UHGV virus genome: UHGV-0314758
DNA length: 41,090 bases
Reading direction: 5' to 3' (one strand)
Source: a virus
A program made the position numbers and the translations under genes. The notes beneath the pieces are model-generated. The model had not been told where the DNA came from. It made no database searches and saw nothing but the letters and a program-made list of their open reading frames with translations. Below, one piece after another: positions 3,555 through 33,710 of the stretch (the first letter of the stretch is position 1; each line of letters begins with the position of its first letter).

Positions 3555-3568
3555 TTACCATTTGGTAA
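3555..3568. promoter_or_regulatory. operator-like palindrome TTACC-ATTT-GGTAA (OL cluster, 4-bp spacer variant)
   Basis: Direct read of the sequence. One of three sites between the repressor gene end and the leftward operon. Confidence 0.55.
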
Positions 3569-3628
3569 ATATCAGGGGTATGAGAAAGCCACCCGGTGGT
3601 GGATTTCTGGTAATTCAACGCCCTGCTG

Positions 3629-3643
3629 TTACCGTTAAGGTAA
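3629..3643. promoter_or_regulatory. operator-like palindrome TTACCGTTAAGGTAA (OL cluster)
   Basis: Perfect TTACC-N5-GGTAA followed by TAATAAT. An extra GGTAA half-site lies at 3609-3613. Confidence 0.6.
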
Positions 3644-3691
3644 TAATCTGATCAATTTATGGTTGTGTCAATAGATTTGATGAGGAAAAGT

Positions 3692-3706
3692 TTACCATTT
3701 TGGTAA
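3692..3706. promoter_or_regulatory. operator-like palindrome TTACCATTTTGGTAA (OL cluster)
   Basis: Perfect TTACC-N5-GGTAA. Confidence 0.6.
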
Positions 3707-3761
3707 GTGCATGAGGCGCGGGGAGTTATCCCACTGGCAGGAGTAACAGGTAGGTTAGAGG

Positions 3762-4343
3762 TTACTGGTTCTGGCTGACGATGAACTTGATGAAGGCGGC
3801 GATCTTGTTTTTCTCTTCCTGCGGCAGCCCGGCGTATTCATGGTGGTCATAGTCAATCAGACCAGCATTACCAGGCGGAAGGATCAGCTCATATGCATCG
3901 CGGCCGAACGCCCTGGCGATAGCCGACAGTACGCCAATGCTGGTGGAGCCTTCGCAGTTCAGGATGCGATTTACGGTCGCCTGGCCGATACCGGCCGCTT
4001 CCGAAACCTTTTTCTCTGAGTTCAGATCCGGATGCTGTCCCATCCATACACCCAGGGTAAACGCTGCCTGCTTTTCCACACTCCATTCCTGCGGGTCGAT
4101 AATCTCCGGCAGCGTCGGGGTATCTGACAGATGGTCGATATCCAGCCAGAACCGACCTTTCCCGGCGAACGACTCGATCTCGCGTGCCGCGTTGGCGCCG
4201 ATATTTTTTGTCCCTTTGCTCCACCTGTTAACGAGGTTAGCTGATTTTTTGATTCTCTCGGCAAACCGGAGTTGCGTGTTATCGAAATCCTTCCGGATTA
4301 TCTCATTGAGGTTGTCGCGTCTTATGTCGTAGATGCTTTTCAT
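3762..4343 (-). CDS. CI-like prophage repressor with two XRE-type HTH domains and no S24 peptidase domain
   Basis: 193 aa. HTH 1 is ...LRFAERIKKSANLVNRWSKG... and HTH 2 is ...VSEAAGIGQATVNRILNCEGSTSIGVLSAIARAFG.... There is no Ala-Gly/Ser-Lys autocleavage module. It is divergent from a cro-like gene and flanked by operator clusters. The start has no SD, as for a PRM-type leaderless transcript. Confidence 0.7.
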   Translation of the reverse strand: MKSIYDIRRDNLNEIIRKDFDNTQLRFAERIKKSANLVNRWSKGTKNIGANAAREIESFAGKGRFWLDIDHLSDTPTLPEIIDPQEWSVEKQAAFTLGVWMGQHPDLNSEKKVSEAAGIGQATVNRILNCEGSTSIGVLSAIARAFGRDAYELILPPGNAGLIDYDHHEYAGLPQEEKNKIAAFIKFIVSQNQ

Positions 4344-4396
4344 TTCTATTTTTTTAGCCTGAAATTGTTACCTAACTGATTAAATTTAATAGAATA

Positions 4397-4411
4397 TTAC
4401 CATAAAGGTAA
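4397..4411. promoter_or_regulatory. operator-like palindrome TTACCATAAAGGTAA (OR cluster)
   Basis: Perfect palindrome within the repressor/cro divergent region. Confidence 0.6.
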
Positions 4412-4413
4412 AC

Positions 4414-4428
4414 TTACCAAAAAGGTAA
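4414..4428. promoter_or_regulatory. operator-like palindrome TTACCAAAAAGGTAA (OR cluster)
   Basis: Perfect palindrome, 17 bp centre-to-centre from the previous site. Confidence 0.6.
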
Positions 4429-4434
4429 CAGTCA

Positions 4435-4463
4435 TTGATTTTTACACCAGATTGGTAATAATC
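4435..4463 (+). promoter_or_regulatory. candidate rightward early promoter (PR-like) with degenerate operator
   Basis: -35 TTGATT (4435-4440), 17-bp spacer, extended -10 TGGTAATAATC (4453-4463). The spacer ACACCAGATTGGTAA (4444-4458) is a degenerate half-palindrome. Confidence 0.45.
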
Positions 4464-4497
4464 AGGCTGTCTAAAGTTAGTCCGGGACTAAAAAAAT

Positions 4498-4731
4498 ATG
4501 AGCGATGTGCAAAAATTTGACTTCAAACGCTGCTGGCTCGACCTCTCGCCGGCTGAGCGAGAAGAGTTCGCAAGTGACGCCGGCACGACCAGCCACTACA
4601 TTCAGGTTCACCTGACTGGCCGTAGAAGAATTCCACGTAAGCCTCTGTTAGAAAGACTGTTTAAAGCCTGCAAATCCCGTAATTGGATCTCCGCAAAATC
4701 CGACCTGGTCCTCTGGTTCCACGAACGTTAA
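4498..4731 (+). CDS. Cro-like HTH protein (YdaS/Cro family)
   Basis: 77 aa, divergent from the repressor. The motif LSPAEREEFASDAGTTSHYIQVHLTGRRRIPRKP resembles the YdaS/Cro-type HTH. Confidence 0.55.
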   Translation: MSDVQKFDFKRCWLDLSPAEREEFASDAGTTSHYIQVHLTGRRRIPRKPLLERLFKACKSRNWISAKSDLVLWFHER

Positions 4732-4784
4732 TCCTCAAAACTCACCCTCGCCGCCACCCCCAGGCGGCTCCTGCCTCTCCCTGT

Positions 4785-4803
4785 ACACCAATTTGGTAAT
4801 AAT
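4785..4803 (+). promoter_or_regulatory. promoter-like element ACACCAATTTGGTAATAAT (degenerate operator plus extended -10)
   Basis: Same TACACCA-N-TTGGTAATAAT architecture as 4444-4463. Lies between the cro-like gene and the next gene. Confidence 0.35.
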
Positions 4804-4878
4804 TATCCAAATACGGTTGATCTTTTTTTGGCTTGCTGCAAAATTACCGTAACCACAACCAGAGTGAGACAGGAACTA

Positions 4879-5087
4879 TGGAGATCATTACTCGCGTCGA
4901 AGCGGCAAAGGCAGGACTAAAGCGCTACTACACCGGTAAGCAATGTAAGCACGGCCATGACAGTGAGCGATGGGTATACAACGGGCATTGTGTCGAATGC
5001 ACCCTCGAGACTAACCGCCGCCGCCATGCTGAGATAAAACGGCTAATGCATGAGGCCTCAAAAGGTAATGCCGTGGAGGTGATCTGA
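4879..5087 (+). CDS. small zinc-finger protein (cII-position gene)
   Basis: ATG 4879 with an AGGA RBS (MEIITRVEAAKAGLKRYYTGKQCKHGHDSERWVYNGHCVEC...). The C-X5-H...C-X2-C spacing suggests a treble-clef Zn site. Confidence 0.5.
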
Positions 5088-5854
5088 TGGCCCGCATTCG
5101 CACCATTAAGCCCGAGTTCTGGACCGATGAAGACATGGCAGAGGTATCAGAACCAGCCTGCTTGCTGGCTATTGGTCTGCTTAATTACGCAGATGATGAA
5201 GGCTATTTCAATGCAAACCCGAAGCTTATCAAAGCTGCAGTTTTCCCTATCCGAGAACCATCCGTTCCTATTCCGGTACTAATACGGGAGCTTTCCAACT
5301 GTGGTTATTTATCCATGTTTTCCACCCCTGATGGCAAGCATTTTGGGGTCATAACGAATTTCCTTAAACATCAGGTAGTGAATAAGCCAAAAGAAAGCAA
5401 AATCAAATGTTTACCCCTAGTACCGTATGAGTACGGTACTGATACGGTACAAGTACCATTAGGAATGGATCAGGGATCAGGGATCAGGGAAATAAAAACC
5501 CCTCTCTCTGCGCGCGAAGTAATTCAAGTCCCTCCGGTTGTCGTTGATGGTATCGGAGAGCCAATTGGCAAATTCACCATGCATGAAAACTGGAAGCCGT
5601 CAGAGGACTTTGTCATGCGCGCCAGAACATGGGGCCATGCGCTACCAGCTGACGGTTACAAGAAATCAGACCTGATCGAATTCATCACCTACTGGATGGC
5701 AGAAGGCAATGTGATGCAACACGTGCAGTGGGAGCAGAAGTTTGCCCGGCTGCTGATGAACAGGAAAAAAAGAGCGGCAGGAAAGCGCGGTGAAAGCTCT
5801 GACGATGAAGTACCACACTGGAACAGCCCTGAAGGCTGGAAGGATTTCTTATGA
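5087..5854 (+). CDS. replication initiation protein, DUF1376 (YdaU-like) N-terminus plus DnaT-like C-terminal domain
   Basis: MARIRTIKPEFWTDEDM... at the N-terminus. The C-terminus (...FTMHENWKPSEDFVMRARTWGHALPADGYKKSDLIEFITYWMAEGNVMQHVQWEQKFARLLMN) resembles the DnaT ssDNA-binding domain. Sits immediately upstream of the P-like gene. Confidence 0.65.
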   Translation: MARIRTIKPEFWTDEDMAEVSEPACLLAIGLLNYADDEGYFNANPKLIKAAVFPIREPSVPIPVLIRELSNCGYLSMFSTPDGKHFGVITNFLKHQVVNKPKESKIKCLPLVPYEYGTDTVQVPLGMDQGSGIREIKTPLSAREVIQVPPVVVDGIGEPIGKFTMHENWKPSEDFVMRARTWGHALPADGYKKSDLIEFITYWMAEGNVMQHVQWEQKFARLLMNRKKRAAGKRGESSDDEVPHWNSPEGWKDFL

Positions 5855-6636
5855 GTAACGTATTCGCAGCAATTCAGAATCGTGATGCCGGCGCCCTGGC
5901 TCGCATGATGGGGCCGGACAATCACCAGGCTCAGCAAGACAATGTTGTGAACATCAGCGCAGAGAGACTTGTCGATGCCCTGTTTAAACAGCTCAAGCAA
6001 CTGTTTCCGGCAGCAGAGCAGACCAACCTTAAGACCGCACAGCAGGAGACCGACGCTAAGCGCCAGTGGATCGCCGCTTTCGCCGAAGGTGGTATCCGTA
6101 CCCGCGAGCAGGTATCAGCAGGAATGCGCCATGCCCGTGCCAGTGAATCACCGTTCTGGCCGTCACCAGGTCAATTCATCAAGTGGTGCAAAGACAGCAA
6201 GATGGTGCTTGGCGTGAGCATCGAAGATGTGATGGGGGAGTTTCACCGCTACGCCAAGGAGAAAAGCCTACAGCCTGGCGGACCAGAACAATTCCCGTGG
6301 CGCCACCCTGTCATGTACTGGATTGTGTGCGATACCAGGCGCGCGATGTACCAGCGTCAGTTAAGTGAGATTGAGGTTGAGAAACATGTGCGTAAGCTTC
6401 TTGACGAATGGGCATCAAAGGTCGCGGCAGGTCATCAGATACCTGATCCGATTCTGAGCATCCAGTCGAAGCCAGAGCCTATAAGCACCCCTCCAGACCC
6501 CGGTGGCAATACCTACCATCCACCAGGTCGAAGCTTCGGATGCATGCCTAACGCGGCGACACTCGGAGGTATAACCCCGGCACAGTGGCTGATGGAGGAA
6601 TACCGGCGAGGGAAGGCAGCAGGACTCATCAAGTAA
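5851..6636 (+). CDS. lambda P-like replication protein (DnaB helicase loader)
   Basis: RQWIAAFAEGGIRTREQVSAGMRHARASESPFWPSPGQFIKWC aligns closely with lambda P (RQWVLAFRENGITTMEQVNAGMRVARRQNRPFLPSPGQFVAWC). Confidence 0.85.
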   Translation: MSNVFAAIQNRDAGALARMMGPDNHQAQQDNVVNISAERLVDALFKQLKQLFPAAEQTNLKTAQQETDAKRQWIAAFAEGGIRTREQVSAGMRHARASESPFWPSPGQFIKWCKDSKMVLGVSIEDVMGEFHRYAKEKSLQPGGPEQFPWRHPVMYWIVCDTRRAMYQRQLSEIEVEKHVRKLLDEWASKVAAGHQIPDPILSIQSKPEPISTPPDPGGNTYHPPGRSFGCMPNAATLGGITPAQWLMEEYRRGKAAGLIK

Positions 6637-6673
6637 TACCGGCGCGGAAGCGCGTTTTTTTACGCCTTAATGT

Positions 6674-6688
6674 TTACCAAAAGGGTAA
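6674..6688. promoter_or_regulatory. operator-like palindrome TTACCAAAAGGGTAA
   Basis: Perfect palindrome, 6 nt upstream of a 16-codon mini-ORF (6695-6745, MRKTIDIDPFMVINYQ). Confidence 0.5.
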
Positions 6689-6735
6689 TAAAATATGCGC
6701 AAGACTATTGATATTGATCCGTTTATGGTTATAAA

Positions 6736-6750
6736 TTACCAATAAGGTAA
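6736..6750. promoter_or_regulatory. operator-like palindrome TTACCAATAAGGTAA
   Basis: Perfect palindrome, 5 nt upstream of ATG 6756. The GGTAA half probably doubles as the SD. Confidence 0.5.
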
Positions 6751-6755
6751 AAATC

Positions 6756-7103
6756 ATGCGAAAGACACTACAGGCACTTGGCCGGCTTAAAGCTGGCCAG
6801 ATGAACAAAACCGAAACGGCGTATGCGCAAGAGCTTGAACTGCGTAGGCGCTACGGGGAAATCGCCTGGTACCGGTTCGAAGGCATCAAGCTGCGTCTGG
6901 CTGACAACACGTTCTACACGCCTGACTTCGCCGTGATGCTGGCAAACGGCCAACTGGAAATGCACGAAGTGAAGGGGGGTTACTGGACCGAAGATGCCAG
7001 GGTGAAAACCAAAGTCGCCGCCGACCAGTACCCATTCCGGATCATCGGAGTAACGAAGCTCCCGGCAAAAGCCGGCGGCGGGTGGAAGGTCGAAGAGTTC
7101 TAA
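6756..7103 (+). CDS. DUF1064-family protein (PD-(D/E)XK-like fold)
   Basis: 115 aa containing ...YTPDFAVMLANGQLEMHEVKGGYWTEDARVKTK..., which gives D...E-x-K, matching the phage DUF1064 family. Confidence 0.55.
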   Translation: MRKTLQALGRLKAGQMNKTETAYAQELELRRRYGEIAWYRFEGIKLRLADNTFYTPDFAVMLANGQLEMHEVKGGYWTEDARVKTKVAADQYPFRIIGVTKLPAKAGGGWKVEEF

Positions 7104-7165
7104 AACAACGATCTTCATTGATATCAATTGAATCAATAAGTTAAACGGGTAAGCGGGGGTAAGTA

Positions 7166-7300
7166 TGGATTTCGATTTCGTGAATTACAGTCGTCGGTCA
7201 CTGCTGCTGTTCGTGATGGTGGCAAACATCATTGGGTGGGTGGCAATCATCGCCGTCCTGTATGTGGCTTATCTGGCGATCGAGTGGGTGGCGGCATGAA
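7166..7300 (+). CDS. small hydrophobic membrane protein (44 aa)
   Basis: RBS GGGGGTAAG precedes ATG 7166. The product MDFDFVNYSRRSLLLFVMVANIIGWVAIIAVLYVAYLAIEWVAA has one predicted TM helix. Its stop overlaps the next start as ATGA. Confidence 0.4.
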
Positions 7301-7742
7301 CATCGAAACAGTAAACGAGCTCATCGCCTCCCTGGAGTCAGCAGGCGAGCTGTCGATCAGAGAGCAGAAGTTCCTGAAGCTGGCTAAAGCGTACCAGCAG
7401 CTGGCTGCGGAGAATGCGGGGCTGAAGGCTGGCATTGCAGAAGAAATTGAAGTTATCAATCGTGGCGGTCAGGCGTACTGCGTGAAGGACGGCATGTCCA
7501 TAAACCCGATATATGCGCGCGGATGGAATGACCACCGGGCTAATTTGGCAGCGGAAAAAACCCCCGCCACCGATCGCATCGTAGCCGGGATTAAGGCTGA
7601 TGGGGTGGCGTTGGTTAAGTCTGCATTTGAGATGCATATCCAGTCTGCATCCTGCTATCAGGATGAAATTGTTGGAATGGAATCAGCGATGAGCATTGCA
7701 TGCCAAGTAGAGTCGCAGCTGCGCGAGGGGGCCGACAAATGA
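7296..7742 (+). CDS. hypothetical protein
   Basis: ATG 7296 (MNIETVNELIASLESAG...). The ORF track's 7236 start is a non-ATG upstream extension. Confidence 0.5.
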   Translation: MNIETVNELIASLESAGELSIREQKFLKLAKAYQQLAAENAGLKAGIAEEIEVINRGGQAYCVKDGMSINPIYARGWNDHRANLAAEKTPATDRIVAGIKADGVALVKSAFEMHIQSASCYQDEIVGMESAMSIACQVESQLREGADK

Positions 7743-8636: not shown

Positions 8637-8803
8637 TGTGGGTGCTCATTATCTGGATGTTCGGCGGTTACGAAAACCCGACCATTACCACTCAAGAGTT
8701 TCAAACAGAATCCGCCTGTCGAGCTGCATTTGCCGAAGTGAAAAAGGTAAACAATGCCGACGTTTCTCTACGTGGCGTATGCACGCCTAAGGGTGACCAA
8801 TGA
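8636..8803 (+). CDS. small membrane-anchored protein (DUF1482-like)
   Basis: 55 aa with an N-terminal hydrophobic segment. Start and stop are both ATGA-coupled. It is a paralogue of 9393..9584. Confidence 0.35.
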   Translation: MWVLIIWMFGGYENPTITTQEFQTESACRAAFAEVKKVNNADVSLRGVCTPKGDQ

Positions 8804-9923: not shown

Positions 9924-9952
9924 GGGAGATTGACTAAATCCTCACACGATTA

Positions 9953-9972
9953 TACTGTTTAAATATACAGTA
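9953..9972 (+). promoter_or_regulatory. LexA (SOS) box TACTGTTTAAATATACAGTA
   Basis: Matches the CTGT-N8-ACAG consensus with both half-sites intact. Lies 17 nt upstream of ATG 9990 and just downstream of a TTGACT -35-like hexamer at 9930-9935. Confidence 0.7.
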
Positions 9973-9989
9973 TTTTAGGGGTGAATATC

Positions 9990-10247
9990 ATGGGTGGCAA
10001 AGACCGTAATTATACTGTCGTTTACCGCGGGGATTTTATCGACGCCGTACCTGATGGCCGATGGATGATGATCCAGCGTGGCAAGGAGTACGGCGGCGGC
10101 TACTGGTTTGGTCGAGCTTATGCCGACTGCTTCTGGCTTGAGTTTGAGCGGCCAATGCCTCTATCAAGCTGTGTTGAGTACGTCGTGCTATACGACCATG
10201 TCGCTGCCAGAGCTCATGAGTTTGAGGATGAATTTAAACTGGAATGA
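9990..10247 (+). CDS. small SOS-regulated protein (candidate antirepressor/induction factor)
   Basis: 85 aa (MGGKDRNYTVVYRGDFIDAVPDGRWMMIQRGKEYGGGYWF...), RBS AGGGGTGAA. It lies directly downstream of the LexA box and is followed by a rho-independent terminator. Confidence 0.5.
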   Translation: MGGKDRNYTVVYRGDFIDAVPDGRWMMIQRGKEYGGGYWFGRAYADCFWLEFERPMPLSSCVEYVVLYDHVAARAHEFEDEFKLE

Positions 10248-10252
10248 CCGCG

Positions 10253-10279
10253 GCCGCCGACTATGGCGGCTTTGTTTTG
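10253..10279 (+). terminator. rho-independent terminator
   Basis: GCCGCC-GACTAT-GGCGGC stem-loop followed by TTTGTTTTG. Confidence 0.6.
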
Positions 10280-10289
10280 CGTGTTACTA

Positions 10290-10304
10290 TTACCTAAAAG
10301 GTAA
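10290..10304. promoter_or_regulatory. operator-like palindrome TTACCTAAAAGGTAA upstream of the late operon
   Basis: Perfect palindrome 20 nt upstream of the terminase small subunit start, immediately after the terminator. Confidence 0.5.
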
Positions 10305-10324
10305 TTATTTTCGGGGTGTTTACC

Positions 10325-10915
10325 ATGCCAAAGGATCCGAAGCGCAAATCAACTCAGTACAAACCGTTGACGGTGATGCAGGAAGCCTACGCCCAGGAGT
10401 ATGTGAAATGCCCTGAAAATCAGACGCAGGCGGCCATCAATGCGGGGTTCTCCCCAAAGTCTGCCCACGTCAAAGCCAGCACGATGATGCGTGATGAGCG
10501 TATCCAGAAACGAATCGCTGAGCTGATGGAGGAGCGCAATAAGCGCCTGCGCGTCAGCGCCGATTACGTGCTGCTGCGCCTGGTGGAAATCGACCAGATG
10601 GATGTGAGCGACATCCTCGACGATGAAGGCGGACTGAAGCCGATTAGCCAGTGGCCTAAAGTCTGGCGAACGTCGATCAGCGCAGTGGATATAAACCGCA
10701 TCAGGATGGCGATGAAGGATGACGAGGAAGATATCGAGTCCACGCTGCAAAAAATCAAATGGCCCGACAAGGTGAAGAACCTCGAGCTCATCGGCAAGCA
10801 CGTCGACGTGATGGCATTCAAAGAGCGCATGGAAGTTAACGTGAAAGTCACCATTGCCGACCGTATGGCCGCCGCTCGGCTCCGCCTGAAAGAGCACCAG
10901 GGTGGTGACCAGTGA
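10325..10915 (+). CDS. terminase small subunit
   Basis: MPKDPKRKSTQYKPLTVMQEAYAQEYVKCPENQTQAAINAGFSPKSAHVKAS..., of the P27/Terminase_2-type small-subunit family. Located immediately upstream of TerL. Confidence 0.75.
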   Translation: MPKDPKRKSTQYKPLTVMQEAYAQEYVKCPENQTQAAINAGFSPKSAHVKASTMMRDERIQKRIAELMEERNKRLRVSADYVLLRLVEIDQMDVSDILDDEGGLKPISQWPKVWRTSISAVDINRIRMAMKDDEEDIESTLQKIKWPDKVKNLELIGKHVDVMAFKERMEVNVKVTIADRMAAARLRLKEHQGGDQ

Positions 10916-13068: not shown

Positions 13069-13145
13069 TGGTGCAGCATGCAGGATTCGAACCTGCGACC
13101 AACCGCTTAGAAGGCGGTTGCTCTATCCTACTGAGCTAATGCCAC
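13069..13145 (-). tRNA. tRNA-Arg (anticodon UCU)
   Basis: Minus-strand sequence GTGGCAT-TA-GCTCAGTAGGATAGAGC-A-ACCGC-CTTCTAA-GCGGT-TGGTC-GCAGGTTCGAATCCTGC-ATGCTGC-A-CCA. It has a standard cloverleaf, a TCT anticodon and an encoded CCA. The acceptor stem carries two G-U pairs. Confidence 0.8.
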
Positions 13146-13460: not shown

Positions 13461-13475
13461 TTACCAAAAAGGTAA
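13461..13475. promoter_or_regulatory. operator-like palindrome TTACCAAAAAGGTAA (divergent late/moron promoter region)
   Basis: Perfect palindrome followed by TAATTT. It is preceded by TTGTGT, which could serve as a -35. Confidence 0.5.
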
Positions 13476-13530
13476 TAATTTATCGGCAAAAGGTCAATAC
13501 ACTACGACAAATAAATCATATGTGGTTAAA

Positions 13531-13541
13531 TTGGTAATAAT
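13531..13541 (+). promoter_or_regulatory. extended -10-like element TTGGTAATAAT
   Basis: Same element as at 4452-4463, 4793-4803 and 33322-33332. Lies 24 nt upstream of the 13565 start. Confidence 0.35.
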
Positions 13542-19608: not shown

Positions 19609-22085
19609 TGGCTGTTAGCTGGATACAACCGAGCTTCTCAGGTGGAGAAATTGCTCCATCGCTCTATGGCCGCATCGATATGGCCAAGTACCAGGTGGCG
19701 CTGCGCAAGTGCGATAACTTTATCGTGCGGCAGTATGGCGGGGTAGAGAACCGCCCGGGCACGCAGTTCATCGCCGCGGCGAAATACCCGGATCGCAAAT
19801 GCCGCCTTATCCCTTTCCAGTTTTCGACGGTGCAGACCTATGCGCTGGAGTTTGGCCACAATTACATGCGCGTCATCAAAGACGGCGGCCTGGTGCTGAC
19901 CACCGGCAATGTAATCTACGAGCTGGCGACACCTTATACAGAAAATGATGTTTTCGGCCTGAAATTCACCCAAAGCGCCGATGTGATGACGATCGTGCAC
20001 CCGTCCTATCCGCCTAAAGAATTGCGCCGGTATGCGCATGACAACTGGCAGATCGTCGATGTGCAGACAACTAACGGCCCGTTTGAAGATATCAATGTCG
20101 ACGAGTCCAAAACTGTCTGGGCCAGCGCCACTACTGGCACAATCACTCTGACCTCGAGCTCTGCAATATTCGGCGCCGAGCAGGTCGGAAAGCTGTTCTA
20201 CCTCGAGCAGCCAGCCGTTGACTCTGTACCAGTATGGGAAACCAGCAAGAGCACATCGATCGAGGATATCCGGCGCGCCGACAGCAACTACTATCGCGCC
20301 AATACCGAAGGAAAAACCGGGACGTTACGCCCATCACACACCGAAGGTATGGCGTGGGATGGCTGGGGCGGAACCGGCGATGATGATACAGGCGTGCAGT
20401 GGGAATACCTGCATAGTGGTTTTGGCATTGTGCGGATCACTGCCGTCGCCGGTGACGGCCTGACTGCAACCGCTGATGTGGTTTCTCGTATCCCTGAGAA
20501 CGTTGTCGGGGCTGACAAGGCCAGCTACAAGTGGGCACGCTATGCGTGGAACAGCGTCAATGGCTATCCGGCGACGGTCGTCTACTACCAGCAGAGGCTG
20601 TACTTCGCTGCATCCCCTGCCTATCCGCAAACCATCTGGGCCAGCCGTACCGGTGACTATAAAGACTTCGGCAAGAGTAACCCGACGCAGGACGATGACA
20701 GGATCGTTTATACCTACGCTGGCCGGCAGGTTAACGAAATTCGCCACCTTATCGATGTTGGATCGCTGGTTGTTCTGACCTCCGGCGGTGAGTTTGTTGT
20801 GACCGGTGACCAGAATAAAGTGCTTACGCCTTCTGCATTCTCCCTGAGTTCTCAGGGCTCAAACGGCTGCAGCGATGTCCCACCTATCGCAGTTTCGAAT
20901 ATCGCGCTCTTTATCCAGGAGAAGGGCAGCGTCGTGCGGGATCTGGCCTACTCGTTTGATGTGGATGGATTCCAGGGCAACGACCTGACAATCCTTGCTA
21001 ATCACCTTTTCCAGAAGCGCAGCATTGTCGACTGGGCGTTTTGTATTGTCCCGTTCTCCAGCGCGTTCTGCGTGCGTGATGATGGAAAATTGCTGGTGCT
21101 GACCTATCTGCGCGATCAGCAGGTTTTCGCCTGGTCTCCGCAATCCAGCGCCGGGAAATATGAGAGCACTTGCGGTATCAGTGAAGGCAGCGAGGATGCG
21201 ATCTATTTCGTGGTTAACCGCACTATCAACGGCCAGACGAAACGCTATATCGAGAGGCTGGCAAGCCGCCAGTTCACCGATGACCTTGACGCTTTCTTTG
21301 TCGACAGCGGACTGACCTATGACGGACGCAACACCGGCAGCCGGGCGGCGACTATAACCGGTGGAAGCGGGGACTGGAGTTATCAGGTGCCGTATACCCT
21401 GACGATGAGCGGGGCCAGCTATTTTACCGCAGGAGACGTCGGCGCACAGATCCAGTTCCCCTACACAGGAACCGATCCTGAAGATGGTAGCGCCGTTGCC
21501 ATGCAGCTGCGCTGCGACATTATTTCGGTTGAAAGCGGCAACTCGGTAACCGTCACAGCCAACCGGAATATTCCTCCTGCCCTGCGCAATACCGCCACCA
21601 CTAACTGGTACATGGCCCGCCAGACATTCGCCGGACTCGATCACCTCGAAGGACAGACCGTGAATGTACTGTCTGACGCCAGCGTAGAGCCGCAGAAAGT
21701 CGTCACCGGCGGCGCCGTTACGCTGGAGAAACCCGGCGCCGTGGTCCACATCGGACTGCCGATTAACGCCCAGTTTGAAACCCTGGACATCAATATTAAC
21801 GGGCAGGAGACGCTGCTCGATAAGAAACAGCTGATCAATACCGTGACACTAGTGGTCAACGCCAGCCGCGGCATCTGGGCATCAACTCCAGGCGGCCAAT
21901 GGTACGAATACCCTCAGCGCGAGTTTGAGTTTTACGACGATCCTGTTGATGACGCCACAGGCAAAGTAGAGGTCAAGCTCGACAGCAACTGGGATAAAAA
22001 TGGGCGGGTAAAAATCCGTCAGACTGACCCGCTGCCGCTTTCTGTGCTGGCGGTGATCCCCCGCATCACCGTGGGAGGTTTTTAA
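19608..22085 (+). CDS. large tail hub/tube protein
   Basis: ATG 19608 overlapping the previous stop as TGATG, with a GAGGA RBS. About 825 aa and beta-rich. Confidence 0.55.
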   Translation: MAVSWIQPSFSGGEIAPSLYGRIDMAKYQVALRKCDNFIVRQYGGVENRPGTQFIAAAKYPDRKCRLIPFQFSTVQTYALEFGHNYMRVIKDGGLVLTTGNVIYELATPYTENDVFGLKFTQSADVMTIVHPSYPPKELRRYAHDNWQIVDVQTTNGPFEDINVDESKTVWASATTGTITLTSSSAIFGAEQVGKLFYLEQPAVDSVPVWETSKSTSIEDIRRADSNYYRANTEGKTGTLRPSHTEGMAWDGWGGTGDDDTGVQWEYLHSGFGIVRITAVAGDGLTATADVVSRIPENVVGADKASYKWARYAWNSVNGYPATVVYYQQRLYFAASPAYPQTIWASRTGDYKDFGKSNPTQDDDRIVYTYAGRQVNEIRHLIDVGSLVVLTSGGEFVVTGDQNKVLTPSAFSLSSQGSNGCSDVPPIAVSNIALFIQEKGSVVRDLAYSFDVDGFQGNDLTILANHLFQKRSIVDWAFCIVPFSSAFCVRDDGKLLVLTYLRDQQVFAWSPQSSAGKYESTCGISEGSEDAIYFVVNRTINGQTKRYIERLASRQFTDDLDAFFVDSGLTYDGRNTGSRAATITGGSGDWSYQVPYTLTMSGASYFTAGDVGAQIQFPYTGTDPEDGSAVAMQLRCDIISVESGNSVTVTANRNIPPALRNTATTNWYMARQTFAGLDHLEGQTVNVLSDASVEPQKVVTGGAVTLEKPGAVVHIGLPINAQFETLDININGQETLLDKKQLINTVTLVVNASRGIWASTPGGQWYEYPQREFEFYDDPVDDATGKVEVKLDSNWDKNGRVKIRQTDPLPLSVLAVIPRITVGGF

Positions 22086-23098: not shown

Positions 23099-25720
23099 AT
23101 GCCAGTAGTACCAACCGTAACCGGTCGTCAGGTTGAAAGCCGCGGCGTGCAGACCGGAGGTTTTCAGGCCGTCGCTCAGCCAAATATCAGCGATGCGCTG
23201 GGCGCCGCTGGCACCCAGGCGCTTGATGTGTTCGGACAGGCAAAGCAGCAAGCTGACCTTGCTCTAACCCAAGATGCGACTCAAAGGCTTTATGCTGCTG
23301 GAAGTGGATTGATGGATGATCCCAAAGAAGGTTTAATGACTCTCCAGGGGAAAAATGCTATTGGTCAGGCTCCTGGGTATATCCAGAAATTTGATAACGA
23401 GATACAAACTATTGCTGGCACGCTACCTGAGTCCGCACGAAATGTGTTCTTAAAGCAGGCTCAGCAGCAGCGAATGCAATTTGCCACTCAAGCAGAGCGG
23501 CATGAATTAGGACAACGCAGGCAGTATGAGTCCGGTCAGCAAGACGGTTATTTATCCTTGCAAGCTCAGCAAGCTATATCTAATCCACAGTTGTTCAACC
23601 AATCAGCTTTGAATGCCAGAGCCTCAATTATGGCTTATGGACGAGCTCATGGACAAAGCCCTGAAGAGATCGAGGCAAACTGGGTTCAATGGCGTGAGCA
23701 AGCAGGAAAGCAGGCAACTGACGCTATCTATACTGCCCTGTACCAGAGAAAAATGGGGCCGGATGGCAGAATTGAAGTCACTAATACCGCATCAGAAGGC
23801 CAATTATTTTCTGCGATGATCTGGCATGAAAGTGGCGGAAATCAGTTCAGCAAAGACGGCGCACCGCTGGTATCTCCGAAGGGGGCTGCTGGCGTAGCGC
23901 AGGTCATGGAAGATACCGGGCCGGAGGCTGCGCGGCTTGCTGGCGTCGAGTGGGATCGTGATAAATGGCTGAATGACCCACGCTATAACGCAACGCTTGG
24001 CCAGGCCTACTTCGGCGCACAAATGAAGAAGTATGACAATAACCCGGTTCTGGCGGTGGCGGCGTATAACGCTGGGCCTGGTGCAGTAGATGGATGGATC
24101 AAAAAGTTTGGCGATCCGCGCACTGGTGCTATCAGTAATGAGCAGTTCGCTGCTGCGATCCCATACGATGAAACCCGAAACTATGTGGCGAAAGTCACTG
24201 GCAGCGCTGTAGGTATTCCGCAGGATGCAACAATGGAGAGTTTAATGTCGCTTCCATCATGGAACGCCATGAATCCTTCAAATAAATCAGCAATGTTAAG
24301 TAAGTGGGCTGGTCTCTATGATATGCAGGCCGCAGCAGGTCGCGTTTCATTGCAGAGTCGTATGCAGGATGACATGGCGAAACTGGAGGCAGGGAAAGAA
24401 GTAACCCCCATCACTGAACATGAATGGGCTGCGGTTATGCCGTTGCAGGCCAGCCCGGCGGAACGCATTCAGATGCGCGAGACCTTCCAGCAGTACCAGC
24501 AGGCGATGACGCTACAACCTGTTTATCAAACTATCATGCAGGGTTCCGCACAGCAGGGTATCGCAGCGGTCCAGTCGATGGTGCCACAGGAAGATGATCC
24601 GGACTTCAAATTTAAGCAGAGCCTTTATGCGACTGCGCAGGCCAAACTGAATCAGGTGATGAAGGCGCGGGAGTCTGATCCTGGTGCGTGGTTGCAAACC
24701 AACTCTCCGGTGGTCAAAAACGCCTTTGAGCAGTACCAGAATAATCAGGCGTCAGGTGAATATCTGGTTTCCCGCCTGCAAGCTGAGAAAGACCGCCTGG
24801 GTATCAACAGCAAGAAGGTCCTGCCTGACTCCATGGTCAATAGCCTGATTTCTAAGATCGACAACAATAAGGAATCAAGCGTTACCGCCATTCAGTCGGT
24901 GGCGCAGTCATTCGGTAAATACTCTGATCAGGTTATGCAGCAGGTGCAGAAAAGCGCGTACCCGGCGTTGCAGGTCATAATGGCGACCAATAACCCGCGA
25001 GCCGCAAACGCCCTCTGGCAAAACCGCAGTGTTAAAACCTCTGACCTCCGCGGAAGTTTTGAGAAGACCGATGCCGACAGTGCAGATTCATCTTGGAATG
25101 ACCAGGCCAAAGACTTTGCCGGGACGATGGTTGTACAGCCTGGCGGGGCAGCCGTGTGGAACAATTTCAACGAGCAGGGTAAGCGCCTGACCTATATCTA
25201 TATGCAACGTGGCATGTCGTCTGGCGATGCTGCGAAAAAGGCCTATCAGGACGTTCTCGGCGAACAGTATCAGACCAGCGGAACATGGCGTATTCCGAAC
25301 ACTGCTGGGCAGGATATACGCGACGTGAGAGACGGCGCCAATGTGTACCTGAAAAACCTGTCGGCGGATCAAATCATGCCGCTTATCGGCGATTCACGCT
25401 TGCCCGATGAGGTTAACCGCGAGCAGAGCATTTCCCGCATCCGTGATAATGCGCAGTGGGTTACCAACAGTGACGAGACAGGGCTGACTCTGATGATGAA
25501 CGGCCTGCTGATCAACAATGCACAGGGGCAGCCGATAACAGTTCCGTTTGCTGACCTGGCTAAACTTGGCGCTGGCAACCGCACCCCATGGAACAGCCTG
25601 ACCAAATTCGTGCAGACTCCGGTTAAGTACACTCCTGGTCAGTCGAAGAATTACACGGCGGAAAGCCAACGCGACAACTTGATCAACATTATCAAGAACG
25701 GCCAGCAGGCGGGACGATAA
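23099..25720 (+). CDS. internal virion/ejection protein with lytic transglycosylase (SLT) domain
   Basis: 873 aa with an AAGGAG RBS. The region ...GAAGVAQVMEDTGPEAARLAGVEWDRDKWLNDPRYNATLGQAYFGAQMKKYDNNPVLAVAAYNAGPGAV... matches an SLT domain. Confidence 0.7.
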   Translation: MPVVPTVTGRQVESRGVQTGGFQAVAQPNISDALGAAGTQALDVFGQAKQQADLALTQDATQRLYAAGSGLMDDPKEGLMTLQGKNAIGQAPGYIQKFDNEIQTIAGTLPESARNVFLKQAQQQRMQFATQAERHELGQRRQYESGQQDGYLSLQAQQAISNPQLFNQSALNARASIMAYGRAHGQSPEEIEANWVQWREQAGKQATDAIYTALYQRKMGPDGRIEVTNTASEGQLFSAMIWHESGGNQFSKDGAPLVSPKGAAGVAQVMEDTGPEAARLAGVEWDRDKWLNDPRYNATLGQAYFGAQMKKYDNNPVLAVAAYNAGPGAVDGWIKKFGDPRTGAISNEQFAAAIPYDETRNYVAKVTGSAVGIPQDATMESLMSLPSWNAMNPSNKSAMLSKWAGLYDMQAAAGRVSLQSRMQDDMAKLEAGKEVTPITEHEWAAVMPLQASPAERIQMRETFQQYQQAMTLQPVYQTIMQGSAQQGIAAVQSMVPQEDDPDFKFKQSLYATAQAKLNQVMKARESDPGAWLQTNSPVVKNAFEQYQNNQASGEYLVSRLQAEKDRLGINSKKVLPDSMVNSLISKIDNNKESSVTAIQSVAQSFGKYSDQVMQQVQKSAYPALQVIMATNNPRAANALWQNRSVKTSDLRGSFEKTDADSADSSWNDQAKDFAGTMVVQPGGAAVWNNFNEQGKRLTYIYMQRGMSSGDAAKKAYQDVLGEQYQTSGTWRIPNTAGQDIRDVRDGANVYLKNLSADQIMPLIGDSRLPDEVNREQSISRIRDNAQWVTNSDETGLTLMMNGLLINNAQGQPITVPFADLAKLGAGNRTPWNSLTKFVQTPVKYTPGQSKNYTAESQRDNLINIIKNGQQAGR

Positions 25721-25721
25721 G

Positions 25722-29962: not shown

Positions 29963-29966
29963 CTAG
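29963..29966. repeat. IS5 target-site duplication CTAG (left)
   Basis: CTAG is present on both sides of the element, at 29963-29966 and 31163-31166. Confidence 0.7.
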
Positions 29967-31162
<1,196 letters not shown>

Positions 31163-31166
31163 CTAG
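31163..31166. repeat. IS5 target-site duplication CTAG (right)
   Basis: See the left copy. Confidence 0.7.
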
Positions 31167-31176
31167 GTAAATAATA

Positions 31177-31737
31177 ATGAAGAAAATTATATTTTTTGTT
31201 TCAATAATGATGTCTGCATTTTCTTTTGCAGGGCAAAATGTCAAATGCGAACTTAAATACTTTGGGGATAGCGATAAATTCAAGGTAACTGAGTTTTCTT
31301 TTATGGGGATTCCATCTGATTCATACCTTTATACCTGTGCAGACTGTGGAGATATCCAGATAAACGTGTTCCCATCTATTCAGTCTGTCGCTTCCTACTC
31401 ATTTGAAAACAACATTGATTTTGAAAGGAAAATCAATGCTGAATACAACAGGAAAGACATAGCTAAACTTGAAATGGAAAATGTTACTCAAGGTGGGAGA
31501 ATAAATTACTCAATCACCGATACTGGTTTGGCAGAGTTCTACCCAGAAGGCAAAAAAACAAGTTACCTATACTTTTTAGCAAAGCAAAAAAAAGGTAAAG
31601 AACAAGTAGGTTATTCAGGATTTGTTACTTCTAACGGTGATAAGTCATGCTCAATTATTGCGACATATCCAGGAAAAGAAATATCTTCTCAGGGAAGTAA
31701 ATCGCTAAGCTACTTTATGAACCATATCTCAATGTAG
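31177..31737 (+). CDS. AT-rich moron: secreted protein with signal peptide
   Basis: 186 aa. MKKIIFFVSIMMSAFSFAGQ is a Sec signal. The GC content is far below the phage average. It originally abutted the stop of the upstream virion gene as TAATAATG and is now separated from it by IS5. Confidence 0.55.
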   Translation: MKKIIFFVSIMMSAFSFAGQNVKCELKYFGDSDKFKVTEFSFMGIPSDSYLYTCADCGDIQINVFPSIQSVASYSFENNIDFERKINAEYNRKDIAKLEMENVTQGGRINYSITDTGLAEFYPEGKKTSYLYFLAKQKKGKEQVGYSGFVTSNGDKSCSIIATYPGKEISSQGSKSLSYFMNHISM

Positions 31738-31738
31738 C

Positions 31739-31750
31739 GTGACATGTCAC
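31739..31750. repeat. 12-bp perfect palindrome GTGACATGTCAC (copy 3 of 3)
   Basis: Read directly, 1 nt after the moron stop codon. Confidence 0.6.
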
Positions 31751-31762
31751 AACGCTACCCAT

Positions 31763-31786
31763 TAAAAAGCCCGCTATGCGGGCTAT
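31763..31786 (-). terminator. rho-independent terminator for hicBA
   Basis: On the minus strand: AGCCCGC-ATA-GCGGGCT followed by TTTTTAAT, directly after the hicA stop. Confidence 0.55.
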
Positions 31787-31983
31787 TAAAAATACTTATC
31801 TAAACCAGCGTCTTTCAATATGTTATTTGCTGTGTGTTTCGATTTCACAGTAAACGGAACAGAAAAATTCCTTGATGACAATGGACTATACCATATCTCA
31901 TGACTGCCTTTTCCTTGCCTTACAAAATAACAATTTGCAGACTTAAGGATATCAACGAGCCTGGGGTATAGTCCTGTACCCAT
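31786..31983 (-). CDS. hicA: HicA-family mRNA interferase toxin
   Basis: 65 aa (...FVRQGKGSHEIWYSP...NILKDAGL...) with the conserved G-S-H motif of HicA/YcfA. Confidence 0.7.
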   Translation of the reverse strand: MGTGLYPRLVDILKSANCYFVRQGKGSHEIWYSPLSSRNFSVPFTVKSKHTANNILKDAGLDKYF

Positions 31984-31986
31984 ACA

Positions 31987-32244
31987 CTACAGTGCCATTC
32001 TGTCAGTGAAGTTCTGTTCCTGAATGAAGGATAAATGCAGCCGTTTGAGGTTGCCTTTGTATCCGTTCATTTCATATAGCTCAGGAGCTATCTCCCACAC
32101 TCTTTCGGTAAGATCTTCGTAAGAGTCAGCTTCAGTGGAGAGCCCAAGATCTTCACAGTATGCCACCCATACATTCTCTTCTGTATCGTGACACACGTTT
32201 ACTTTGAAAAGGCTCGAGAATTTCAACACATCATCAGTTCTCAT
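31987..32244 (-). CDS. hicB: HicB-family antitoxin (short form, N-terminal domain only)
   Basis: ATG 32244 with a perfect AGGAGG RBS. ...NVWVAYCEDLGLSTEADSYEDLTERVWEIAPELYEM... matches the HicB/UPF0150 N-terminal fold. The ORF track's 32292 start is an unsupported extension. Confidence 0.55.
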   Translation of the reverse strand: MRTDDVLKFSSLFKVNVCHDTEENVWVAYCEDLGLSTEADSYEDLTERVWEIAPELYEMNGYKGNLKRLHLSFIQEQNFTDRMAL

Positions 32245-32258
32245 AGTCGCCTCCTGTT

Positions 32259-32273
32259 TTACCTTATTGGTAA
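32259..32273. promoter_or_regulatory. operator-like palindrome TTACCTTATTGGTAA at +1 of the hicBA promoter
   Basis: Minus-strand promoter: -35 TTGACG (32300..32295), 16-bp spacer, -10 TAGTAT (32278..32273). The palindrome lies immediately downstream of the -10, and the AGGAGG RBS follows it. Confidence 0.55.
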
Positions 32274-32336
32274 TACTAAGCCACCCATGCAATCCGTCAA
32301 GAATTATTTTAAAAGCGCTTCCCTGCGCCAGCAGCC

Positions 32337-33041
32337 TCAGTAACCCTTGGCCTTAGCCACCACGTACTGTGCGTGCGTCTCTATGTCGCGCAGTACGGCG
32401 CCGATACCAACAATGTAGCTGAGCATGGCCGTGACCTCTGCGGCGGCGCCGGATACATCATGCCCGTCAGCATCGAGTTCCCGGAGCAGCTTCATTACCA
32501 TTGAGCTTTTGGCCAGTTCACGCAGGCCATCAGGTGAATGGATATGATCCTGATAGCGTCGGTTAAGAGGGAAGGTGTAATGCTTCTGCTCGACCTGCAA
32601 TGCATCCATGATCGCCGGCAACATGCTGCTGGTCATCTCCTGCGCCAGCATGCGGGCTTTATCAGTCTGGGAGAGTTCTTCCCGAACGTAGCGGCCAGTC
32701 TTGCGGATCTGCGGCAGCACCTCGCTGGTTACCCATTTGCGGAAGCGGTAGGGTATAGACCCTTTTTTGGTAGCATCACGGCAGCGTAATATCATAGTGT
32801 AAAGGCCTGGTTCAGATATCACACTCAGGCTTTGAGGCCCAATTCCAGGCTGACTGTCGGTTAAACCGACGGTATCTTTTTCATCATCATCAAGCTTGAG
32901 AAGAGCATCGCGGTTGTTAGAAATTCCCAATGCATTACACACATCAATAGCAACAAACCATGGCTCACCGTTAATGGTAAATGTGCGAATTTTAACCGTA
33001 GAGTCGAAAGAGAAAATAGACAGTGCATTTTGTGCAGTCAT
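32337..33041 (-). CDS. Bro-N domain antirepressor
   Basis: ATG 33041 with an AAAGGTG RBS. MTAQNALSIFSFDSTVKIRTFTINGEPWFVAIDVCNALGISNNRDA... matches a Bro-N domain. The C-terminal roughly 75 aa are paralogous to the 33361..33621 product. Confidence 0.7.
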   Translation of the reverse strand: MTAQNALSIFSFDSTVKIRTFTINGEPWFVAIDVCNALGISNNRDALLKLDDDEKDTVGLTDSQPGIGPQSLSVISEPGLYTMILRCRDATKKGSIPYRFRKWVTSEVLPQIRKTGRYVREELSQTDKARMLAQEMTSSMLPAIMDALQVEQKHYTFPLNRRYQDHIHSPDGLRELAKSSMVMKLLRELDADGHDVSGAAAEVTAMLSYIVGIGAVLRDIETHAQYVVAKAKGY

Positions 33042-33200
33042 AGTGATCACCTTTGTAGTTAGGTTAATCACCACCGGAGGTTCCAATCTCTGAGGTGGTG
33101 AGACGTACAGGGTTGGAACTACCGGCTACAAAGGACCCGGCGCACCTTTCGGTGCCCCTGCACGCCCCACCATAATTCGAATGTGGCCGTGCTGAACGCA

Positions 33201-33221
33201 TAAAAAAACCGCTTACGCGGT
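33201..33221 (-). terminator. rho-independent terminator (minus strand)
   Basis: Minus strand ACCGC-GTAA-GCGGT followed by TTTTTTT. It lies between the small SOS gene and the Bro-N gene. Confidence 0.5.
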
Positions 33222-33313
33222 AAAGCGCCTCTGTAGTCATCCGGGGTTCCAATCCCGGCACCGGATTTTGCCGATGCCCGATCACTATGGCACAATGGGA
33301 ATGGGTTGTAAAT

Positions 33314-33328
33314 TTACCATTTTGGTAA
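33314..33328. promoter_or_regulatory. operator-like palindrome TTACCATTTTGGTAA
   Basis: Perfect palindrome flanked by TTGTAA (-35-like, 33306-33311) and TAATAA (33329-33334). Confidence 0.5.
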
Positions 33329-33360
33329 TAATAAACCCATCGTTATTTTGATTTCAATCA

Positions 33361-33621
33361 CTATCTGAGTTGCTGCCGCAACTGCATCGCGCAGAAATCC
33401 AGATGCGTTTGCAGCTCCCGCATCGACAACTGCGAGCTTGTCACATAGTTAACCAGTGCCACCAGTTCCGCCGCCGCACCGCTGACATCGTGGCCGTCTC
33501 GCTCCATCTCCCTGAGCAACTCCATCAGCTGTGATTTTACAACCAGGGATCTGACCCCTTCCGGGGTGTGAATACGATCCGCAAAACCTTCGTCGACAGG
33601 ATACTGGTACCGCTCTGGCAT
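33361..33621 (-). CDS. small protein paralogous to the antirepressor C-terminal domain; SOS-regulated candidate antirepressor
   Basis: ATG 33621 with a GGAG RBS. MPERYQYPVDEGFADRIHTPEGVRSLVVKSQLMELLREMERDGHDVSGAAAELVALVNYV aligns with the Bro-N protein C-terminus (RRYQDHIHSPDGLRELAKSSMVMKLLRELDADGHDVSGAAAEVTAMLSYIV). A LexA box lies 19 nt upstream. Confidence 0.55.
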   Translation of the reverse strand: MPERYQYPVDEGFADRIHTPEGVRSLVVKSQLMELLREMERDGHDVSGAAAELVALVNYVTSSQLSMRELQTHLDFCAMQLRQQLR

Positions 33622-33639
33622 TAGGAATACTCCCATAAA

Positions 33640-33659
33640 TACTGTATATATATACATAT
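33640..33659 (-). promoter_or_regulatory. LexA (SOS) box TACTGTATATATATACATAT
   Basis: CTGT-N8 (ATATATAT)-ACAT, a 17/20 match to TACTGTATATATATACAGTA. Lies immediately upstream of the 33621 start. Confidence 0.6.
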
Positions 33660-33695
33660 ATCAAAACGTAACAAAGTTTTCCAGAGCTCTTTTGT

Positions 33696-33710
33696 TTACC
33701 TTAATGGTAA
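33696..33710. promoter_or_regulatory. operator-like palindrome TTACCTTAATGGTAA
   Basis: Perfect palindrome in the divergent region between the SOS-regulated small gene and the tailspike. Confidence 0.5.

Follow-up and report, generated by a model that had tools for sequence, protein, structure and literature searches.

Which protein reads a 15-base-pair (bp) palindrome that recurs in front of genes throughout a phage genome, and can all of its copies be assigned to one regulator? The question is raised by UHGV virus genome UHGV-0314758, a stretch of 41,090 nucleotides (hereafter, the window), in which copies of the palindrome TTACC-N5-GGTAA flank the repressor gene rep and also lie at promoters of distant genes. 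Judging from its similarities to known phages, this DNA is that of an epsilon15-like Klebsiella phage of the Uetakevirus type, with a mosaic genome. The answer favoured here, at a probability of roughly three in four, is that the palindrome is the operator of Rep, and that the whole network of copies is the Rep regulon.

The palindrome (TTACCNNNNNGGTAA) is present in the window as 11 perfect copies, which start at positions 3629, 3692, 4397, 4414, 6674, 6736, 10290, 13461, 32259, 33314 and 33696; the last seven are outside the left and right operator regions (OL and OR). One hundred dinucleotide-preserving shuffles of the window contained no match (0 expected, 11 observed), so the earlier note, which had first drawn attention to the motif, was correct in regarding it as non-random. 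Allowing one mismatch adds two sites, one within a gene (1770) and one at 38819. When the spacer between the half-sites was varied from 0 to 11, 11 sites with N5 and a single site with N4 (3555-3568) were found, no other spacer occurred in the window, and the everted arrangement of the half-sites gave only two matches. The spacers are 96% A/T, compared with 46% A/T genome-wide. The perfect sites are inverted repeats of 5 + 5 bases and have no definable orientation. Taken together, 32 sites of the window, epsilon15 and SPC32H give the consensus A-TTACC-WDWWN-GGTAA-T (17 bp), with which the published operator consensus of epsilon15 is said to agree.

With gene positions taken from homology to annotated relatives, all 11 perfect sites are intergenic. 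Even under a deliberately over-inclusive tiling of open reading frames (ORFs), which leaves 6.7% of the window non-coding, eight of the 11 remain non-coding (binomial P = 5e-8), and the three that the tiling counts as coding fall in spurious long ORFs and are intergenic in annotated relatives. Thus, the intergenic location claimed in the earlier note is upheld.

The sites have also been retained in relatives of the window. Perfect copies at syntenic places number 11 in epsilon15, 10 in SPC32H, 8 in phiV10 and 9 in Tyrion, and a 44-kb stretch of ST512-KPC3phi13.3 has 8. The syntenic regions aligned were OL, OR, the ant/tailspike region, and the regions upstream of terS, gp3, the DUF1064/RuvC gene and gp40. 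Over eight multi-genome alignments, any site that is perfect in every genome has invariant half-sites, and its spacer and flanks vary. No compensatory half-site changes were found in these syntenic alignments; since the half-sites are invariant without such changes, recognition by a protein is favoured over an RNA stem.

Moreover, part of the network is already annotated. The epsilon15 record (AY150271.2) has seven features labelled "protein_bind, repressor, lysogeny", all of the form ATTACC-N5-GGTAAT: before terS (12-27), before gp3/portal (2931-2947, the homologue of window 13461), before the tailspike gene (19895-19911, the homologue of window 33696), at OL (32479-32494, 32554-32570 and 32616-32632) and before the RuvC gene (35906-35922). 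As far as annotation goes, at least, the suggestion that such sites were undescribed in epsilon15-like phages is therefore incorrect. The seven features account for seven of the 11 perfect copies in epsilon15, leaving out both OR sites, the site upstream of the holin gene and the second site upstream of the resolvase gene, and they appear to be predictions. A literature text search for the consensus string, which did not extend to the primary epsilon15 and SPC32H papers, gave no match. As the sites flank rep, are syntenic in relatives and are annotated as repressor sites in AY150271.2, the additional copies are best read as further operators of the same repressor, as had been proposed.

What kind of repressor is Rep? 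The rep gene (3762..4343, minus strand) encodes an SPC32H-type repressor of 193 residues which matches SPC32H Rep (PDB 5D50) over its full length (phmmer E 4.4e-76, residues 1-192 aligned to 2-196). By homology to SPC32H Rep it has an N-terminal DNA-binding domain, a middle dimerisation domain and a C-terminal domain for tetramerisation and Ant binding. Its identity to the Reps of SPC32H and epsilon15 is 64%, and to those of phiV10 and Tyrion 44-47%; the NLVNRW helix of the N-terminal domain is invariant among Reps as low as 44% identical overall. A Pfam search found only HTH_3/HTH_26 and no Peptidase_S24 in the window Rep, whereas the same search scored Peptidase_S24 at E 2.6e-22 in the CI of Pseudomonas phage PseuP_224. 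The description of the repressor as "CI-like" is therefore apt for its N-terminal helix-turn-helix (HTH) only: otherwise it is an SPC32H-type Rep, without an S24 domain and with an antirepressor that is probably LexA-controlled. According to PMC9638917, which cites the SPC32H work, SPC32H Rep binds palindromic DNA as a tetramer in which each pair of DNA-binding domains is drawn from different dimers, and Ant disrupts this tetramer. In PMC9986798, which also cites that work, the DNA-binding domain is placed at the N-terminus, the tetramerisation domain is called p53-like and of a looping type, and a distance of about 100 A is given between the two pairs of adjacent middle dimerisation domains; the paper states that the gene-repression mechanism "has not been extensively characterized".

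The antirepressor homologue, Ant (86 residues), is encoded at 33361-33621 on the minus strand, divergent from the tailspike gene. It is 60-66% identical to Ant of SPC32H (64%) and to the epsilon15, phiV10 and Tyrion homologues, and matches phrog_450 (E 1e-44). Twenty-two nucleotides upstream of its start codon is a candidate LexA box, CTGTATATATATACAT (33643-33658), which reads CTGT-N8-ACAT, i.e., one mismatch from CTGT-N8-ACAG. It aligns with the ACTGTATAAA.ATACAGTA boxes of the relatives, which have ACAG in epsilon15, SPC32H, phiV10 and Tyrion. A single-base change in the LexA box of ant reportedly leads to constitutive production of Ant in SPC32N; given the ACAT in its own box, the window prophage might be leaky or easily induced. 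On sequence criteria the window belongs to the epsilon15/SPC32H Rep-Ant family: those defining features that were tested were found, except that the LexA box has one mismatch. Elsewhere in the window there is a perfect LexA box, CTGTTTAAATATACAG (9955-9970), just upstream of an ORF for 88 residues (9981-10247) which belongs to phrog_2100 (unknown function) and lies at the end of the early-right region. By the position of this box, the ORF would join ant as a second small gene under SOS control.

Further evidence comes from the association between the Rep-type HTH and the half-site outside this group of phages. The CI of PseuP_224 shares with Rep the N-terminal domain only (45% identity, E 1e-15); its C-terminal region is an S24 peptidase and the phage is otherwise unrelated. 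Beside cI (at 19922-19974 and 20797-20836) PseuP_224, a lambda-like phage, has three perfect copies of TTACC-N4-GGTAA and one with a single mismatch, all flanking the gene, against 0.14 expected; no further copy was found in the 31.7 kb examined. The IMG/VR database was scanned for ATTACCN5GGTAATAAT, and the loci found were then grouped by their number of TTACC-N5-GGTAA sites. Within the stretch fetched, the Rep N-terminal domain was encoded in 24 of the 32 loci with at least three sites, but in none of the 88 loci with one or two. Of the eight loci with at least three sites that lack it there, four have an ant gene. One metagenomic contig, L059 (26% GC), has TTACCATTATGGTAA three times in a 35-bp tandem repeat (1519-1603) and no Rep homologue, and is probably unrelated.

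How, then, are the sites arranged relative to promoters? Promoter calls were based on matches to the consensus hexamers only. At OL, the operator OL1 (TTACCGTTAAGGTAA, 3629..3643), which is kept in five genomes, begins on the final base of the -10 of the leftward promoter PL (TTGACA-17-GATTAT, 3643..3671, minus strand, 10/12), so that PL fires into OL1; the GTCAATAG block at PL is invariant in five genomes. The auxiliary operator OL2 (3692..3706) is 63 bp from OL1 (62 bp in relatives). The third site, OL3 (TTACCATTTGGTAA, 3555..3568), found in the spacer scan, has a spacer of 4 bp, i.e., a deletion of 1 bp relative to the N5 form at the aligned position of epsilon15 and SPC32H; the OL alignment showed no such site in phiV10 and Tyrion. 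This N4 variant is probably weakened.

At OR, in the intergenic region between rep and the cro-like gene, OR3 (4397..4411) has half-sites that are invariant in five genomes, and OR2 (4414..4428) follows at 17 bp. The third site, OR1 (ACACCAGATTGGTAA, 4444..4458), is degenerate (ACACC...GGTAA, two mismatches) and lies in the spacer and -10 of the promoter PR (TTGATT-16-AATAAT, 4435..4462, plus strand), whose -35, TTGATT, is invariant in five genomes. OR1 is aligned with TCACC..GGTAA in epsilon15 and SPC32H and with TTACC..GGTGA in phiV10 and Tyrion. Thus, of the claim that OL and OR each have three sites around the repressor gene, the clusters themselves are confirmed, with the qualification that one site at OL has a 4-bp spacer and one at OR is degenerate. 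A similar degenerate operator, ACACCAATTTGGTAA (4785..4799), is upstream of the gp40-like gene and is aligned with GTACC..GGTAA in phiV10 and Tyrion; it adjoins the presumed -10 of the plus-strand promoter of that gene. The half-site variant TGGTAATAAT occurs at 4453, 4794, 13532 and 33323. Its positions agree with those previously listed for variants resembling extended -10 elements, but 4785-4799 is a degenerate full site rather than a mere half-site.

Similar arrangements recur away from rep. Before the DUF1064/resolvase gene, an auxiliary operator (6674..6688), which follows the terminator of the replication operon (6641-6656), is 62 bp upstream of a promoter-proximal operator (6736..6750), a pair that is kept in five genomes. 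The -10 of the DUF1064 gene promoter (TTGATA-18-TAAATT, 6708-6737, plus strand, 9/12) abuts the left edge of the proximal operator, inside which is the ribosome-binding site. Between a terminator (10252-10271) and terS, an extended -10, TGTTACTAT (10282-10290), is fused to the operator 10290-10304 on the plus strand; the arrangement TGnTACTAT-TACC-N5-GGTAA is conserved before terS in six genomes, and 10282..10304 is a candidate Rep-controlled late promoter. A minus-strand match at the same place (TTGGCA-16-AATAAT, 10304-10331, 10/12) was set aside: the start codons of terS (ATGCCA), read in reverse complement, give its -35, and the match is probably a coincidence of coding sequence.

Two further units belong to accessory genes and are both read from the minus strand. 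The promoter of the HicB-like/HicA pair (Pfam DUF1902 and HicA_toxin) is TTGACG-16-TAGTAT (9/12), fused to the operator 32259-32273 (together 32259..32300) and followed by AGGAGG and ATG. The promoter of the Ash/Bro genes (Pfam Phage_ASH and Bro-N) is TTGAAA-18-TATTAT (10/12), fused to the operator 33314-33328 (together 33314..33357); an operator occupies the corresponding position in phiV10 and Tyrion.

At PL, HicB-like/HicA, Ash/Bro, DUF1064 and terS the -10 and the operator share one base, the last of the former and the first of the latter, and at most of the well-defined promoters the operator extends across -7 to +8. Strong -35/-10 pairs adjoin several operators, which bears out the view of the palindrome as promoter-associated. 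The geometry is not the one first suggested: the TAATAAT flank, taken for a plus-strand -10, is at PL, HicB-like/HicA and Ash/Bro a minus-strand -10 firing into the operator, and a general location of the sites in the spacer between -35 and -10 was rejected on promoter geometry for these three and for DUF1064 and terS. Only the degenerate sites of the PR type fall in a promoter spacer.

Two operators are differently placed. One (13461..13475), conserved in five genomes, separates the gp3/portal operon from a tRNA-Arg gene on the minus strand. A block consisting of a half-site and a -10-like sequence (TGGTTAAATTGGTAATAAT, 13523..13541, plus strand) begins exactly 62 bp after the first base of this operator; it is just upstream of gp3 and invariant in five genomes. 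The tRNA-Arg (TCT) gene itself is at 13069-13145. On the minus strand, 16 bp from operator 13461, a TTGACA is conserved in four relatives; the window has TTGACC there (13492-13497). This hexamer could serve as the -35 of a promoter that fires leftward and has its -10 inside the operator. The other (33696..33710), also conserved in five genomes, is between the divergent ant and tailspike genes, upstream of both core promoters. A third such site is found in relatives upstream of the holin gene, as a perfect copy in epsilon15 and as a TCACC variant in SPC32H, phiV10 and Tyrion. At the equivalent place in the window (36640-36790) it has decayed past recognition, and the upstream neighbour gene also differs; a lysis-proximal operator, previously mentioned as part of the network, is therefore lacking in the window.

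The distances between neighbouring sites are also restricted. In a survey of 37 loci, many of them closely related, neighbouring sites no more than 200 bp apart were separated by 17/18 bp (n = 25), 62/63 bp (n = 55), 71 bp (n = 1), 76 bp (n = 13) or 124 bp (n = 1). The exact 17-bp spacing accounts for 24 occurrences in related loci, and every genome has the 62-63 bp pair in two places, at OL1-OL2 and upstream of the DUF1064/RuvC gene. A distance of 62 bp is about six helical turns, which would fit a tetramer that spans a promoter-proximal site and its auxiliary partner.

Taking these features together, we infer that Rep binds at each site, forms loops between sites and represses the late and accessory promoters, and a mechanism can be outlined. 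Each pair of N-terminal HTH domains would read one palindrome, and the tetramer would carry two such pairs; because there are two pairs per tetramer, one tetramer could fill two adjacent sites, as at the OR sites 17 bp apart. At PL, the DUF1064 promoter and gp3, it could form a loop between the promoter-proximal site and the auxiliary site 62-63 bp upstream. Most transcription units have an operator on or beside their core promoter: at PL, DUF1064, terS, HicB-like/HicA and Ash/Bro from the last base of the -10, covering the start site, and at PR and the gp40 promoter as a degenerate operator in the spacer and -10. In the lysogen, Rep would directly silence the early, replication, late and accessory promoters. 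Following DNA damage, LexA would be cleaved and Ant made, and Ant would break the Rep tetramers, thereby freeing all promoters together.

A stronger form of this proposal is that Rep is a single-tier regulator which directly silences every unit, terminase/structural promoters and newly acquired accessory genes included, by means of a p53-like looping tetramer on proximal operators and auxiliary sites at a fixed 62 bp, that Ant frees all units at once without any late regulator, and that accessory genes have been acquired or kept only with an operator-fused promoter. This is offered tentatively, and we would sooner doubt it than hold it as a whole.

Several observations weigh against the assignment of the whole network to Rep. 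The presumed promoter of rep is overlapped by both perfect OR sites, and PR by a degenerate one only. The operators at 13461 and 33696, and the holin-upstream site of relatives, are approximately 60-80 bp upstream of the nearest (weak) candidate promoter, and simple occlusion therefore fails at these three places; for 33696 a partner at 62 bp was rejected, as the nearest GGTAA half-site is 50 bp away and out of helical phase. The total number of promoter-like matches in the scanned regions is no higher than in shuffles. In the collection searched, 36 records of the phage group have a Rep homologue, at 43-100% identity, and the half-sites are the same in every genome of the group that was examined, so that there is no covariation between repressor specificity and site. 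Finally, the HTH of the cro-like protein is equally conserved, and this protein could bind the same sites.

This last point leads to the alternative that survives best. The cro-like gene (4498..4731, plus strand) encodes a protein of 77 residues that is 54-66% identical to those of relatives and matches phrog_35 ("transcriptional repressor"); its HTH segment, AGTTSHYIQ.HLT, is invariant across five phages. Lambda Cro and CI share operators. The cro-like protein could be the main or an additional binder of the palindromes, turning down transcription units in the lytic cycle or setting their timing; those listed IMG/VR loci that bear Rep encode it as well, and the sites at approximately -60 to -80 are beyond simple occlusion by Rep. 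Yet, in PseuP_224 the half-sites are kept together with a Rep-like N-terminal domain while the cro-like neighbour is dissimilar: an unannotated cro-like ORF there (19661-19891, minus strand) encodes a product of 76 residues with no significant similarity to the window cro-like protein (E 0.025, 12 non-collinear residues). Further, the quantised spacings of 17 and 62-63 bp suit a tetramer with two DNA-binding pairs and not a 77-residue Cro, and shared binding by the cro-like protein would supplement repression by Rep, not displace it. As a replacement or partner for Rep at these sites the cro-like protein is therefore a possible, if unlikely, candidate.

A second motif has to be described before the next alternative is considered. 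CATATnTGGTT is conserved near many operators and in places forms the palindrome AACCATATATGGTT. In the window it occurs at 13517-13527 and 33740-33750, and in degenerate form before DUF1064 (approximately 6717-6728), in the PL spacer (approximately 3652-3662), before the gp40-like gene (approximately 4807-4820) and before the holin gene (approximately 36704-36714). It is found in epsilon15 at 2988, 24751, 33752 and 35953, and in phiV10 at 24736-24749; phiV10 has 14 matches against 2.8 expected, and the enrichment is less clear in the window. The motif may be part of late or middle promoters, or the site of another regulator, e.g., a PerC-like activator.

The possibility that the palindrome itself is the target of a late or middle activator, e.g., the PerC-like protein encoded at approximately 700-1230 on the minus strand, with the OL and OR copies in secondary use, had been raised at the outset and is very improbable. 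It has in its favour that a transcriptional activator (phrog_868) is encoded in the early-left operon, and that the sites at 13461, 33696 and, in relatives, upstream of holin are some 60-80 bp upstream of weak promoters poor in -35 sequence, where activators typically bind. The clusters that are densest and best conserved, however, flank rep; at most of the well-defined promoters the site covers -7 to +8, which is a repressing position; the half-sites of PseuP_224 are around cI only, in the 31.7 kb examined; and CATATnTGGTT, which is nearer to the weak promoters, is a better candidate for an activator site. Least credible of all is that the repeats are RNA hairpins in 5′ leaders, host-factor sites or boundary sequences for module exchange instead of protein operators: the sites do lie at module junctions and do fold, weakly, as RNA (-3.8 to -5.9 kcal/mol), but such hairpins are weak, TTACC and GGTAA are constant and without compensatory changes while spacers and flanks vary, some sites (e.g., the auxiliary ones) precede every transcript start, the presence of the same half-sites with a Rep-type HTH in a Pseudomonas phage makes an enterobacterial host factor unlikely, and a role in recombination would be a by-product of conservation rather than its explanation.

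One putative member of the network should be removed from it. The near-match upstream of int, TTACCATTACGGTAT (38819..38833), reads TTACC-N5-GGTAT, and the right half is GGTAT, never GGTAA, in all five genomes. That half is supplied by ACGGTAT repeats (38801, 38813, 38827), which match the GTGACGGTAT sites annotated four times as integrase-binding in epsilon15. Although it had been listed as a network member, 38819 is therefore probably an overlap of integrase arm-type repeats and no Rep operator. The ACGGTAT repeats cluster around int (38591, 38801, 38813, 38827, 39047 and 39137). In relatives, a 9-bp inverted repeat, TGACGGTAT...ATACCGTCA, flanks the operator-like int site; the right arm in the window is GTACCGTCA.

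The genome that carries the network is a mosaic one. Klebsiella phages Kp4865-1 and ST512-KPC3phi13.3 match its immunity and replication region at 98% identity. For its major capsid protein, identity is 98.5% with that of ST11-OXA245phi3.2 and 92-94% with those of phiV10 and Tyrion. Compared with ST512-KPC3phi13.3 and BUCT711, Rep is 99.5-100% identical yet the capsid protein only 41%; since Rep is almost identical to theirs while the capsid is close to that of other phages, the genome is considered mosaic. The intergenic regions that carry operators are located at the junctions between its modules.

If Rep does act on all of these sites, the circuit of epsilon15-like phages is much flatter than that of lambda, as one tetrameric repressor and one SOS-controlled antirepressor would jointly gate early, late and accessory genes. 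The system would also be a compact model for repression by a tetramer with two DNA-binding pairs at fixed geometries of 17 and 62 bp. Further, it would predict that accessory genes of such prophages are silent in clinical Klebsiella, E. coli and Salmonella lysogens; in the window these would be the HicB-like/HicA pair and the Bro/Ash pair.

The nearest known systems are epsilon15 and SPC32H. In epsilon15 the same motif is found at syntenic places (three at OL, and at terS, gp3/portal, tailspike and resolvase), and Rep is 64% identical. Relative to epsilon15, the window has additional operator-promoter units at HicB-like/HicA and Ash/Bro, genes that epsilon15 lacks, has lost the holin-upstream site, and has an OL3 with a 4-bp spacer. 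SPC32H shares a full-length Rep (64%), Ant (64%), a LexA-type box before ant (with one mismatch in the window) and 10 perfect syntenic copies; as summarised in PMC9638917 and PMC9986798, the published work on SPC32H covers the structure of the tetramer and its disassembly by Ant.

Lambda-type CI has a self-cleaving S24 domain and operators only at OL and OR, whereas the window Rep has no S24 domain and seven of the 11 perfect sites are elsewhere. PseuP_224 has a related HTH, the same half-sites and clusters flanking cI, but differs in its S24 domain, 4-bp spacer and sites confined to cI (in 31.7 kb). In phage P1, one immunity repressor, C1, acts on operators at many scattered promoters, and an antirepressor provides a route to induction. 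The operators of P1 are 17 bp long and asymmetric, and C1 is not known to be related in sequence to Rep. P1 C1 is the closest in logic, while the sites in the window are symmetric and their proposed reader is a tetramer with two DNA-binding pairs. The stoperators of mycobacteriophage L5/L1 gp71 are asymmetric and orientation-dependent, and act on elongation inside transcribed regions. The likeness to that system is the presence of many repressor sites outside the immunity region. However, the sites in the window are palindromic, follow terminators, and are at -10/+1 or a fixed 62 bp upstream of a proximal site; being symmetric and at promoters that follow terminators, they do not support the analogy with L5 stoperators that had been drawn. 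Mycobacteriophage repressors bind multiple asymmetric operators (PMC1934351).

The regulon is already predicted in the epsilon15 annotation, and the window is a further example of a known design. What may be new, modestly, are the fixed 62-bp pairs, the geometry of promoters firing into operators, the accessory promoters fused to operators, and the relative with an N4 spacer in a Pseudomonas phage.

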